64,000 nucleotides of DNA, taken from contig JBHHYN010000001.1 of the NCBI GenBank assembly GCA_046757565.1, forward strand, positions 11,466-75,465, in the 5' to 3' direction. Every line of letters starts with the position of its first letter. Position 1 is the stretch's first letter. This stretch comes from Gammaproteobacteria bacterium. GTDB lineage: Bacteria; Pseudomonadota; Gammaproteobacteria; Eutrophobiales; Eutrophobiaceae. The notes beneath the pieces were generated by a model. That model was not told where the DNA came from and made no database searches. It saw only the letters and a program-made list of their open reading frames with translations. The position numbers and the translations under genes were made by a program. This document shows positions 52,613-58,908 of this stretch, one piece after another.

Positions 52613-52941
52613 AACAGATTTATTTTTCATGCTCGATAATCACTCGCTCCCTATTATGTCCACGCAGCACGATATGATAGGAGGTATTCCTCAATGTAAT
52701 CTTCGCCTGCATTGGCATGACGCTTCTCCTTAATCGTTTTCTTCAAACATTTTGGGTCTTCAGCAGAATCTGTGGGTTGATATATAAACAGTAGCCCGTC
52801 ATTCCCGTGAAAACGGGAATGACGGTATTTATGACTTGAATCCGCCTCTCTATTTAATCAGTTTCTATTCAAAAGTCTTTCTTGTTAACCCACAAATTCT
52901 GCTGAAGAGCCAACATTTTAAGTCAAAAAATAAATCTGTCC
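52613..52941 (-). mobile_element. Copy B of the IR-bounded Y1-transposase-fragment element, itself interrupted by MITE copy 1
   Basis: Ends acagatttattttt (52614-52627) and aaaaataaatctgt (52926-52939) are perfect inverted repeats. Inner ORF comp(52620-52718) = MPMQAKITLRNTSYHIVLRGHNRERVIIEHEK, the same 32-codon length as copy A. Confidence 0.55.
52754..52911 (+). mobile_element. 158-bp MITE, copy 1, with 25-bp terminal inverted repeats and 8-bp target-site duplication AACATTTT
   Basis: Left end gggtcttcagcagaatctgtgggtt, right end aacccacaaattctgctgaagagcc. Flanks aacatttt|...|aacatttt. Internal 13-bp-stem hairpin ccgtcattcccgt-gaaa-acgggaatgacgg. Confidence 0.88.
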
Positions 52942-52972
52942 CCTTTTGCTATGGCATGATCCCCACAGATTG

Positions 52973-53833
52973 TTAAAACATTGCCAGTGTTGTCTCATAG
53001 GCACTTGTCACCAGCTTGTCAAGCGGCCAGGAGCGCATGGATTTATTCAGTACTTCTATGCCGTAGGGTCCTTCATAGCCTGCGTTTTGCACGGCTTTTA
53101 TCAGCCCCTTGATATCGAATTCACCTTCTCCGCACAACAACCTGTGATTGACTGTCTGCTCACTCCAATCACCGCTAATCTGTGCCGGACCGTCATTGAT
53201 TTCAACGCCCTTCAGATATTTCAACGGCAGCTTTTCGGTAGTGGTATTGGGTATCTTGAGTGAATGGAAATGCCATATATCTACCATTAATCCACCGTTC
53301 GCGGCGCCGGCGCCCTCGACCAGGACCAGTGCCTCATCCAGATCACCGGGCGTGCTCCACGGAATTAATTCAAACACAATATCCGTGCCGTGTTCGACAC
53401 CTTCCGCACATAATTTCGAATACTCTTCGATTAATCTCTCCATGGGGCAGGGAGCGCCAATAAAATCGCCAATCTTTATATGGCGGGCTTCGAGTGTCTC
53501 GGCTGTACCCAGCAATAACTTCCTGATCCGGTCAGATTCCTTGCGTTGTTTCCCGTCGGAGAACCAGCCGGTAATGAATTCCAGTTCCACATGCTTGATC
53601 CCATTGTCATCCAGTATGTGCTTCATCTCTGTAACCGTCCGGGACTCAAGGATATGCTCGATGTCAGCGTGCCAGAAACCCATACCCCTGAAACCCGCCT
53701 TGGCACAGGCCTCAACACGGTCCCTGAAATCAAACGGGCTGTATTCCGGGCCGGTATGGGGGATCGCCCCTCCGGCGATGGTCCAGTATGAGGCCAGTAA
53801 CTCGACACCGGCCCCGTGATGATTATGTGGCAT
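52973..53833 (-). CDS. Xylose-isomerase-like TIM-barrel protein (sugar phosphate isomerase/epimerase, AP_endonuc_2 family)
   Basis: 286 aa with the family's spaced metal-ligand pattern (..HVELEF.., ..IVFELIPW.., ..VDIWHF.., ..GIEVLN..). Specific activity (isomerase or dehydratase) cannot be assigned. Confidence 0.75.
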   Translation of the reverse strand: MPHNHHGAGVELLASYWTIAGGAIPHTGPEYSPFDFRDRVEACAKAGFRGMGFWHADIEHILESRTVTEMKHILDDNGIKHVELEFITGWFSDGKQRKESDRIRKLLLGTAETLEARHIKIGDFIGAPCPMERLIEEYSKLCAEGVEHGTDIVFELIPWSTPGDLDEALVLVEGAGAANGGLMVDIWHFHSLKIPNTTTEKLPLKYLKGVEINDGPAQISGDWSEQTVNHRLLCGEGEFDIKGLIKAVQNAGYEGPYGIEVLNKSMRSWPLDKLVTSAYETTLAMF

Positions 53834-53899
53834 ATTATTTTCCTCTGGCTATTTATGTATCAAGCCTGAAGACTCCGGTCAATGATGTTCAGCAGGCGC

Positions 53900-54673
53900 T
53901 CAAAAGGCCACATGCATCATATAACCCCCATCAACATGCAGGTTTTGCCCAACGGTATTGCCTGACAACGGGCTTGCCAGAAATACCACCGCGGCAGCCA
54001 CTTCCTCGGGTGTCCCCAGCCTGCCTATGACACACTGCCGCAGTGCATCGTCATAAACTTGTGGCGCATTCTGCTTGATATGATCCCAGGGACCCTTTTC
54101 GAAGTAGATCGGGCCCGGTGATACCATATTGACCCGAATGCCTTCCCCGGCGAACTCCTTGCTGATCTGGGATCCGTAGGCGATGAGTGCAGCCTTACAT
54201 GAACCGTAGGCCACTATACCCGGAGCTTTCAGCACCTTTGACATTAGGCCGGAGATGCTGGCGATCAATACGATCGCACCTGCATCTGATTTGCGTAAGT
54301 GGGGCAGTGCGGTTTCGCAGCCATGTACCGTGCCAAGGATGTCCGTGGCAATCTCCTTTTGCCATCCCTCCTCGCCGGCCGCGACAGGCCCGGCGGAGAC
54401 ATTGGAAACAAATATGTCGAGACCGCCCAGTCGTTCCGCCGCAGAATCGATCCATGCCACATAGGATTCCTTTTCCGTGATATCCACAGAGTCGCCAATC
54501 GCATGAACACCTTTCTGCTTCAATTCATTGACCGCCCCGTCCACACCAATCCGGTTGCGGGCACAGATGGCAACGTCAGCGCCTTCGTCCGCGAGTAGAT
54601 GGGCGATACGTAATCCGATACCTCTTGATGCACCGGTAACAATAGCCCGTTTACCCTTGATTTTCAGATCCAT
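53900..54673 (-). CDS. Short-chain dehydrogenase/reductase (classical SDR)
   Basis: TGASRGIG cofactor motif, NVSAG, catalytic Y-x3-K (YGSCKAAL), PG motif VSPGPI. Confidence 0.9.
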   Translation of the reverse strand: MDLKIKGKRAIVTGASRGIGLRIAHLLADEGADVAICARNRIGVDGAVNELKQKGVHAIGDSVDITEKESYVAWIDSAAERLGGLDIFVSNVSAGPVAAGEEGWQKEIATDILGTVHGCETALPHLRKSDAGAIVLIASISGLMSKVLKAPGIVAYGSCKAALIAYGSQISKEFAGEGIRVNMVSPGPIYFEKGPWDHIKQNAPQVYDDALRQCVIGRLGTPEEVAAAVVFLASPLSGNTVGQNLHVDGGYMMHVAF

Positions 54674-57124: not shown

Positions 57125-57232
57125 CCTGTGCAGCAGCCGCCCGGATTTCGCCGTGTACGGGGGGGGCGACCGCCGCTTTAGCCGGTCGCTCCTGCTTCAC
57201 CTCAAATCACAGTGACCTTGGTGTCGTCCGGC

Positions 57233-58630
57233 TTATCCTTTGCCGGTACGCCAGCCTTCCGCGTAGGTTTCGCGTGCAACACTGGAGTAAGGGGCAGGAC
57301 TGACTACAGCGCGGATTTCGATCTGCCTGTGGCGCTCGACCGTCAGTTTTTTCGATCCGCCGCCCTCTTCGCCCCACACGAGTGTGACTTCGGCGCCGAT
57401 GTCGATGTCCGGATCCACCGTGGCCAGTGACAGCATGCTGCGCTCGTTGTAGGTGTAGCCGGCGAACATGGAAAAGCCGACGGTTTTCCCGTTGCTGACT
57501 ATCTTGTCATAGGACGCGGAGGTGTAATTCGATAACGGCATGTCGATATATTTGTAGATATCTCCCTGTTCGAACAGGGAACTGAAGGCCTTAATGACAT
57601 CTTCACTGTTCCAGGCCAAGGTCACTTTATGCCGTTGCGATTTCTTGTCCATCTCCTCAAGGGCTTCTCTGCCGATAAAATCGTGATCGAATTTAACAAA
57701 AGGTCCGTACCCAAGCGCATAAGGGGTCATATAATAGTCTTCAATATTATCGGAGGTGAAGCTGCCACCGATGGAGCCCGAACCCTCATAACCGGCCGCC
57801 GGCAACCACTCCCTGTATGACTTCATCTTCTCACCGGTATAGACCGCCGGCAGGGGTGACGGGATCCAGCCTGATTCCAGTGTGTTGGTCGCATAAGCCC
57901 TGGCGCCGACCTGGGCAAGCCTGAATTCCTTACCGGCTTCAATGATGGCCTCACGGATTTCCTCGCGCTCCTCGTATGGACCCCATACCTCCAGTCCCGG
58001 TGCACCGGCCATGCCATGACGCAAGGCGCGCACCTCTCTTCCCGCGATGTTGATAGAACCCATATTGAAAAACTTGATGTCCGGAAATGGCCCGCCGTTC
58101 AGTTTTTCAATGACCTGCTCGGCATTCGGTCCCTGGATCTGGTAACGGTAACTGATGCGGTTGACTGCTTTCCCTTTCGCATTACCGGGGGAACGGTCAT
58201 CTTTTTTTATAGATACATCGTACCCGCCTGTCTCGGCCTGGAATTGAATCCAGTTGGCAGACGGCGCGCGGCCGACAAAAAGCAGTCTGTTCTCCTCAAG
58301 ATAAAAGAGAATTCCGTCGCCAATCACGTATCCATCGTAATTACACGGCACGTACTGCTTGGCTTTATTGACCGAGAAGTTTGCGAAGGTATTGACAGCA
58401 GTATCGGAGGCCAATTTAATGGCATCGGGCCCCTCAATATAGATATCCACCATATGATGGGACTGATCGTAAAGAACGCAGGTCTCCCGCCAGGCGCGTT
58501 GTTCATCACGCCAGTTAGAGAATTCACCTGGGACCACAGGATAGACATAGGCGCCTATCTGCGAATTGCGCAACATTTCAACCGGATTACCAACTGTCTG
58601 TAACAAGCCCTCCAAGCTTTGAGTACTCAT
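57233..58630 (-). CDS. GcvT-fold tetrahydrofolate-dependent methyltransferase, long (~465 aa) LigM/DesA-like aryl O-demethylase clade
   Basis: 465 aa versus ~365 aa for true GcvT. Blocks [92 protein letters not shown] match my recollection of Sphingobium LigM/DesA. Not verified by search. Confidence 0.7.
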
Positions 58631-58750
58631 GTCTGCTGGTAACCTCCCCTGCTGAAATAAAGTTATTGGTTATGCCTGTAGATTTCGAGTCTAACACCCT
58701 TAATAATCTGTTCAGGCATATAATTTTATTTTTTTTATATCTATTTTATT

Positions 58751-58908
58751 GGGTCTTCAGCAGAATCTGTGGGTTGATATATAAACAGTAGCCCGTCATT
58801 CCCGTGAAAACGGGAATGACGGTATTTATGACTTGAATCCGCCTCTCTATTTAATCAGTTTTTATTCAAAAGTCTTTCTTGTTAACCCACAGATTCTGCT
58901 GAAGAGCC
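58751..58908 (+). mobile_element. 158-bp MITE, copy 2, same orientation, 8-bp target-site duplication ATTTTATT
   Basis: Differs from copy 1 at only two positions in my manual alignment. Flanks attttatt|...|attttatt. Lies 57 bp downstream of the hydrogenase-like operon. Confidence 0.88.

Follow-up and report, generated by a model that had tools for sequence, protein, structure and literature searches.

The window analysed here, a 64-kb stretch of gammaproteobacterial DNA to which all positions refer, contains two copies of a 158-bp sequence, at 52754-52911 (copy 1) and 58751-58908 (copy 2), both on the plus strand. We conclude, with a probability that we put at about 0.85, that these repeats are non-autonomous MITEs (miniature transposable elements with inverted repeats) of the ISL3 type, which would be mobilised in trans by an ISL3-family DDE transposase from elsewhere. 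The element is of a known kind and had been correctly described in an earlier reading of the window from its letters alone (hereafter the sequence-only reading); the locus itself is ordinary. What the present analysis adds is the relation of the 158-bp element to a longer form, and the apparent origin of its hairpin from NTS/SRM motifs, the repeats associated with the Ssn nucleases.

Structure of the two copies

A repeat search of the window found a single family, of 161 nt (52752-52912 and 58749-58909, 99% identity). The two copies lie in direct orientation and are 98.7% identical over 158 bp. They differ at two positions, TTTCTATT versus TTTTTATT and CACAAATT versus CACAGATT, the second of which is inside the right end, and at both it is copy 1 that departs from copy 2 and from the population majority. 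The terminal inverted repeats (TIRs) are 25 bp long and complementary at 24 of 25 positions in copy 2 and 23 of 25 in copy 1. The left TIR of copy 1 is GGGTCTTCAGCAGAATCTGTGGGTT (52754-52778, plus strand) and its right TIR reads GGCTCTTCAGCAGAATTTGTGGGTT on the minus strand (52887-52911); those of copy 2, matching the same pattern, are located at 58751-58775 (plus strand) and 58884-58908 (minus strand). The 25-nt terminal pattern GGSTCTTCAGCAGAATYTGTGGGTT has four matches in the window, which are the four element ends, and none in 100 shuffles. In degenerate form the element end is GG(G/C)TCTTCAGCAGAAT(C/T)TGTGGGTT.

Each copy is bounded by its own perfect 8-bp target duplication. The 8-mer is AACATTTT on both sides of copy 1 (52746-52753 and 52912-52919), and a different one, ATTTTATT, on both sides of copy 2 (58743-58750 and 58909-58916). 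No open reading frame (ORF) of 20 or more amino acids lies inside the 158-bp element, two short ORFs merely crossing its borders. Both copies contain the same hairpin, CCGTCATTCCCGT-GAAA-ACGGGAATGACGG, a perfect 13-bp stem with a GAAA loop at 52796-52825 in copy 1 and 58793-58822 in copy 2. The predicted fold of the whole element has an energy of -69.3 kcal/mol (z = -11.2 against shuffles). The sequence thus exhibits the features expected of a MITE: it is short (below about 600 bp), non-coding and multi-copy, and has TIRs and a target duplication for each copy. In all these respects the sequence-only reading, which had reported two direct 158-bp copies with two differences, 25-bp TIRs, a separate perfect duplication for each copy, no coding capacity and a GAAA hairpin with a 13-bp stem, is confirmed by the repeat search and by inspection of the sequence.

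Affiliation with the ISL3 family

One genome per species was scanned with the 22-nt core of the TIR, and at least 29 stretches matched. They come from Desulfuromonadales, Gammaproteobacteria (including a metagenome-assembled genome, or MAG, from a hydrothermal vent), Kiritimatiellota, Planctomycetota, Acidobacteriota, Thermotogota and others; among the matches listed, many sit at contig ends and none is from the host genome. One of them (L020) is a complete element of 1726 bp bounded on either side by the same TIR. It encodes a protein of 417 aa that matches the ISL3 transposase domain (PF01610 DDE_Tnp_ISL3, E = 6e-78), and the last codons and the stop codon of this transposase gene lie inside the right TIR. 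Two further loci, L013 and L022 (the latter in a Guaymas MAG), encode transposases 54-56% identical to that of L020 and adjoin the same end. The left TIR of copy 1 matches the ends of these three ISL3 elements. The matching ends and the 8-bp duplications are two features of an ISL3-derived element, and the ISL3 affinity that the sequence-only reading had proposed is supported.

Published ISL3 elements agree with this assignment. The ends of the ISL3 transposon Tn7546 start with GGGTCTTC and its 8-bp duplication, AAAATAAG, is AT-rich (PMC9782665). An ISL3-related MITE is also on record, the 179-bp ISMac21-related element of Methanosarcina acetivorans (PMC3852290). The window MITE shares with ISL3 insertion sequences and MITEs the GG(G/C)TCTTC ends and the 8-bp AT-rich duplication, as well as being short, non-coding and multi-copy, but its interior is unrelated to that of any ISL3 element compared. 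The closest annotated plasmid transposases (Caballeronia and Paraburkholderia, about 55% identical to that of L020) have clearly different ends, and a BLASTN search of the 158-mer against 72,556 plasmids gave no match.

Two other high-copy MITE families invite comparison. The Correia elements of Neisseria, of about 100-160 bp with inverted ends of about 26 bp, are intergenic and are reported to affect the transcription and termination of neighbouring genes. They resemble the window MITE in size, copy number, inverted ends and intergenic location, and differ from it in their TA duplication and unrelated ends; we know of no link between them and ISL3. The MITE families described for Microcystis aeruginosa NIES-843 are 176-429 bp long, occur in 20-240 copies per genome and are scattered around gene clusters, in whose instability those authors propose a role (PMC2779907). 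These belong to another organism, have other sequences and, in the table of that source, are assigned to no insertion sequence family.

Two separate insertions

The two copies are two separate insertions into AT-rich intergenic targets, as the sequence-only reading had supposed from the two distinct perfect duplications. Since the duplication of copy 1 is not that of copy 2, and the outer flanks are accordingly unlike, the MITE-genes-MITE arrangement did not move as one unit, and the gene set between the copies was not delivered by them.

The contigs of the source short-read assemblies end exactly at both MITEs (one, L001, spans 52883-58774), which raised the question of whether the longer assembly was misjoined there. 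Chimeric joining, however, leaves no matching 8-mer on the two sides of a repeat. Both pairs are perfect, and an assembly chimera is therefore ruled out.

Further support for the insertion of copy 1 comes from a paralogous, uninterrupted site within the window (12829-13005, plus strand), which shares about 80% identity with the DNA flanking copy 1 to the left and to the right. When the MITE and one AACATTTT are removed from the copy-1 locus, the alignment between the two sites runs about 33 nt further into the right flank.

The unit shared by these two sites, about 180 nt long, occurs twice in the window at about 80% identity (12829-13005 and 52608-52753, the latter continued at 52920-52952). 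Each unit encodes on the minus strand a peptide of 32-33 aa (MMSRQARKILSNTVHHIVQRGQNGNPVFIDHEK and MPMQAKITLRNTSYHIVLRGHNRERVIIEHEK), with the same stop. We take these peptides to resemble the N-terminus of REP-associated tyrosine transposases (RAYTs). A Pfam search of the short peptides gave no match. A piece resembling the C-terminus (...GNERFKEKIEETLKRQVGYAKHGRPKQ) is found at 13091-13270, on the strand opposite to the peptides.

Copy number and a longer form of the element

Genes of the window were found on contigs of two hydrothermal-vent metagenome runs (X2 and X3). Contigs of the source runs were compared with the region, the flank depth of about 12 serving as host reference. Inside the element the depth rises into the thousands, with about 200 small contigs and many distinct flanks at the element ends. 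The deep unitigs represent two arms, with depths of 2200-2520 in X2 and X3 and 350-385 in X4, and each of them starts or ends at ACGGGAAT. Unitigs specific to the 158-bp form, crossing the hairpin as this form does, have a depth of 180-190 in X2 and X3. Further copies of the element hence exist, as shown by the many flanks and by the excess of this short-form depth over the flank value of about 12. A depth of 180-190 would correspond to about 15 copies of the 158-bp form per host-genome equivalent if all of them are in this host. A figure of 60-570 copies per genome equivalent was rejected, the arm depths being shared with a longer form. Compared with the 158-bp form, another form containing both arms reaches an abundance about ten times higher in the community.

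With a depth of 2200-2520 in X2 and X3, this long-form relative is among the most repeated sequences in the vent samples X2-X4. The right arm of copy 2 (58810-58869) shows no difference from the majority unitig, at a depth of 2197. The unitig with the variant of copy 1 has a depth of 18 against about 2200 for the majority, and the substitutions of copy 1 are therefore private or nearly so. Assuming a genome of 3-6 Mb, we estimate the chance that some pair among about 15 copies lies within 6 kb at roughly one in four. Two copies within 6 kb are thus mildly unexpected, and local hopping or chance would each suffice to explain them.

The structure of the longer form can be read from variant contigs. 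Some share the left arm up to 52820 and continue with CCACGACTG(T/C)ATGGACGCA, and others share the right arm from 52813, where it is preceded by CTGGATTCCCGTTTTC. Left-arm and right-arm variants overlap exactly on ACGGGAAT. Longer relatives were also identified at three loci, L012, L015 and L024, from two MAGs, one of Planctomycetota and one that carries the label Enterobacteriaceae. L015 is a MITE of 328 bp with a perfect 8/8 duplication (GAAAAATT), and L024 one of 338 bp with a duplication matching at 7 of 8 positions; in L012 a second end was not identified. In their layout one end is followed after 20-40 nt by GTCATTCC; then come 100-200 nt of interior and GGAATGAC, with 20-80 nt separating the latter from the other end. 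They share with the window MITE the ends and the inverted inner repeats GTCATTCC and GGAATGAC; L015 and L024 also share with it the subterminal CTT(T/C)CTTGTTAACCCACAG, and the interior of L024 shares TGCATGGACGCAC with the vent variant. Unlike the window MITE, which has one fused hairpin and half the length, they retain a pair of distinct hairpins or a single long stem, the two parts being 100-200 nt apart. The 158-bp element thus appears to be the less common form, derived by internal deletion from a longer MITE of greater abundance. Such a deletion seems the simplest reading of the variant contigs and the related MITEs.

The following course of events would be consistent with these data. 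A long MITE of about 330 bp, carrying two inverted NTS/SRM-like hairpins, would have undergone a deletion between the direct ACGGGAAT octamers, leaving a single perfect hairpin with a 13-bp stem; the 158-bp element would be the recently derived short form. An ISL3 DDE transposase supplied from elsewhere would recognise the 25-bp TIRs and excise or copy the element. Insertion into AT-rich DNA by an 8-bp staggered cut, followed by repair, would give the 8-bp duplication. The copies came by two separate insertions: one is in the gap downstream of a five-gene operon, and the other in the gap that divides the end of a hydrogenase operon from an O-demethylase gene's start.

Candidate transposases and possible activity

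In the runs that hold the host, contigs starting with this type of end continue inward into ISL3 C-termini (IALYHTLG..., EAALYHNLG...). One contig with this end and an ISL3 C-terminus has a depth of 189, in a run where the host was not assembled. Comparing L022 with the run contigs gave end matches only, at low depth. A contig of X3 with a depth of 2.1 joins the right end of the MITE to a left end of the MITE with seven letters between them (GCGTTTA); this junction could represent a tandem pair or an excised circle.

Direct repeats of 158 bp that are 98.7% identical are in principle a substrate for RecA-dependent recombination, and deletion of the 5.8-kb segment by this route is possible. The sequence-only reading had suggested deletion or circular excision of the gene cluster between the copies. 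No contig skipping either MITE or the gene segment was seen among contigs, which drop rare variants and cannot link across long repeats, and the suggestion stands as a generic possibility.

The hairpin and the NTS/SRM motifs

The hairpin of the MITE has the core ATTCCC-N8-GGGAAT with a CGTC flank. The exact 23-mer GTCATTCCCGTGAAAACGGGAAT occurs in more than 120 metagenome contigs with GC contents of 30-67%; this and the following counts are among the matches listed. The 23-mer continues with CCAG in 59 of 101 cases. An inverted partner is found within 200 nt downstream in 36 of 101, mostly at a distance of 5-30 nt, against 7 of 101 in the upstream control. The contigs listed have nothing in common with the MITE beyond the hairpin.

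Motifs of this kind are known from the Ssn enzymes, a group of GIY-YIG single-strand DNA nucleases. In the description of these enzymes from 2025, the NTS of Neisseria reads CGTCATTCCCGCGMAVGCGGGAATCYRG, and its relatives across bacteria are covered by a degenerate SRM pattern (PMC11893778). In the same study the C immediately following the palindrome was the most critical base for binding by SsnA, and MITEs are not mentioned (PMC11893778). A 28-mer related to the hairpin, NGTCATTCCCGTGAAAACGGGAATCCAG, fits the SRM pattern and is one compensatory stem pair away from the NTS consensus; the left-arm variant of the vent runs also fits the pattern by inspection.

In three environmental contigs of very different GC content (L109, L117 and L131), a small GIY-YIG gene (PF01541, E-values from 1e-13 to 1e-17) stands beside the 28-mer GTCATTCCCGTGAAAACGGGAATCCAG, at a distance of 14-21 nt from the hairpin. 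In L117 this gene, at 122-518, has the motif on both sides, which is the NTS-ssn-NTS architecture described in PMC11893778.

The short-form hairpin shares with NTS, dRS3 and SRM the ATTCCC-N8-GGGAAT core and the 5' CGTC. It differs from NTS and SRM in having the 5' CGTC on both strands, without the 3' C(YRG): the intact 28-mer ends with GGGAATCCAG and the fused hairpin with GGGAATGACGG. The short-form hairpin accordingly fails both published patterns. There is no SRM match in the window, nor did a simple motif search find a GIY-YIG ORF there. We infer that the MITE hairpin belongs to this cosmopolitan class and arose by the joining of two inverted NTS/SRM-like hairpins, so that it now consists of a fused pair of half-sites.

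A wider hypothesis would make the MITE family the vehicle by which an ISL3 DDE transposase spreads Ssn-related hairpins. The short form would then be an escape variant, in which the fusion has removed the base needed for nuclease binding and which amplifies where intact single-stranded motifs are cut. We consider this doubtful. In the community the long form, both of whose motifs are apparently intact, reaches a very high abundance.

Points against the ISL3 assignment and alternative explanations

Several observations weigh against the assignment of the repeats to ISL3-type MITEs mobilised in trans. The 64-kb window encodes no transposase. The ISL3 genes with this type of end have depths of 3-5.6, below the 12 of the host, and for this reason probably belong to other organisms; the autonomous partner that the sequence-only reading expected in the same genome is thus hypothetical. 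The inner part of the MITE having no similarity to any ISL3 element compared, its parentage is read from the ends alone, and ends conserved among transposases only about 55% identical name no specific partner. Among the relatives compared, no strain offered a true empty site. The nearest of these, with a 72% identical hydrogenase protein and an 87% identical LigM in other gene contexts, are too distant for empty sites.

The hairpin itself raises the alternative that the repeats are not products of a DDE transposase, but repetitive extragenic palindromic (REP) sequences, REPINs or NTS/SRM hairpins spread by a RAYT (a tyrosine transposase of the HUH type) or by an Ssn-linked process. The conserved core and flank, the wide occurrence of the exact 23-mer, often with an inverted partner and at three loci near a GIY-YIG gene, the fit of the 28-mer to the published SRM pattern (PMC11893778) and the fragment beside copy 1 that resembles a RAYT N-terminus all speak for a relationship of this kind. 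What the 23-mer contigs share, however, is the hairpin alone and not the element. The 25-bp ends are identical to ISL3 ends and come with 8-bp duplications. To our knowledge HUH-type elements make no such target duplications. Moreover, the short-form hairpin fits neither the NTS nor the SRM pattern, the window has no SRM match and no GIY-YIG ORF by simple motif search, the RAYT-like fragments have no Pfam match, and the paralogous fragment at 12.9 kb stands there without a hairpin. We regard a spread of the 158-bp repeats by RAYT or Ssn-linked processes as very improbable.

That two near-identical elements flank one gene set also suggests a composite transposon, in which both MITEs and the genes between them moved as a 5.8-kb unit. 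The closest LigM homologues are indeed in a different gene context, and what follows the hydrogenase operon on its downstream side varies between the genomes of distant relatives. Movement as a unit predicts the same 8-mer outside both copies and none inside; instead each copy has its own perfect duplication and the outer 8-mers differ (AACATTTT and ATTTTATT). The GC content of the segment is not distinct from that of its surroundings either, and a composite origin is scarcely credible. The bracketing might still be functional, the copies being kept at the borders as terminators or insulators, or as recombination handles for gain and loss of the gene set. Both are intergenic and exactly at the gene-set borders, their hairpin is scored as terminator-like on both strands, and two copies within 6 kb are somewhat unexpected at about 15 per genome by our rough estimate. 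On the other hand, terminator-like sites are not commoner in the region than in shuffles (10 against 6.8, standard deviation 2.9), and the T-tracts following the hairpin are weak. AT-rich intergenic DNA is where such elements land and survive, and no contig without the segment or without either MITE was seen. A function of the bracketing is quite improbable. The reading as ISL3-type MITEs is the one that we retain.

Neighbouring genes

Six genes, all on the minus strand, lie between the two copies. The one nearest to copy 2 encodes a LigM-type tetrahydrofolate-dependent aryl O-demethylase (57233-58630; NF047885, 782 bits against a cutoff of 580; PF01571). By family matches, the others encode the E1 alpha (55967-57124) and E1 beta (54983-55957) subunits of a thiamine-diphosphate-dependent dehydrogenase of the 2-oxoacid/acetoin type, a lipoyl carrier of 80 aa (54714-54956), a short-chain dehydrogenase (SDR; 53900-54673) and a xylose-isomerase-like TIM-barrel protein (52973-53833). 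These last five genes (52973-57124) are tightly packed, with spacings of 9-66 nt. The gap between the O-demethylase and E1 alpha genes measures 108-265 nt, according to which start codon the latter gene is given. Given this gap and the tight packing, the "six-gene catabolic cluster" of the sequence-only reading, which rightly recognised six genes, is really one O-demethylase gene plus a five-gene operon. Judged from the family names, "catabolic" would be a fair label.

Copy 1 is located 61 nt past the stop codon of the last gene (TIM barrel). On its other side, away from the gene set, is an ABC exporter gene (50413-52557, plus strand). Copy 2 is located 57 nt past the stop codon of a hydrogenase small subunit and 120 nt upstream of the O-demethylase start codon. 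Both copies are hence intergenic. The hydrogenase gene belongs to a six-gene operon for a membrane-bound [NiFe] hydrogenase of the Hyf/Ech type, which ends at 58966, beyond copy 2. The nearest homologues of its large subunit are 72% identical, the named ones being from gammaproteobacterial MAGs and Inmirania, which makes an uncultured gammaproteobacterium the probable host. The copies may affect their neighbours: transcription arriving from either side might be weakly terminated by the hairpin. No promoter-like site facing the O-demethylase gene is predicted in copy 2.

The closest homologues of the O-demethylase (L152-L157, 81-87% identical) adjoin a methylenetetrahydrofolate reductase gene, and four of these loci (L154-L157) also have a cobalamin-dependent methionine synthase gene and a second gene of the GCV_T family. 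None has the E1, lipoyl, SDR and TIM-barrel neighbours, so that the gene pairing in the window is unusual.

Other repeats were observed in the window. A heptamer, GGTTC(A/G)G, is repeated in tandem about six times at 52562-52605, between the stop codon of the ABC exporter gene and the repeat unit beside copy 1. At 44603-44971 a unit of 139 bp is perfectly duplicated in tandem (2.1 copies at 100% identity). This duplication begins within the 5' end of a gene for tRNA-Ser(CGA) on the minus strand (44603-44692) and may be either a scar left by integration or an artefact of the assembly. Five diverged 41-nt repeats at 46893-47689, spaced by multiples of 108 nt, are probably due to a protein with internal repeats (Sel1/TPR-like) rather than to a DNA element. 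The stretch with the RAYT-like fragments is poor in genes, and about 0.6 kb upstream of it is a tmRNA gene (11842-12201, 216.7 bits) with the tag peptide ANNDNFALAA; tmRNA genes are common integration sites of islands.

Significance

For the locus itself the finding matters little, and the assembly through the repeats is sound. The two copies show that the host carries a recently active ISL3-type MITE. The analysis also draws a modestly novel link between two fields, in that a MITE with the ends of a DDE transposon would have its core from a motif that flanks Ssn genes. If the family does serve as a vehicle for Ssn-related hairpins, this would be one concrete way in which NTS/SRM repeats, whose multiplication is so far unexplained, increase in number. 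If the link is functional, the intact and the fused hairpins would be a natural pair of substrates for nuclease assays.

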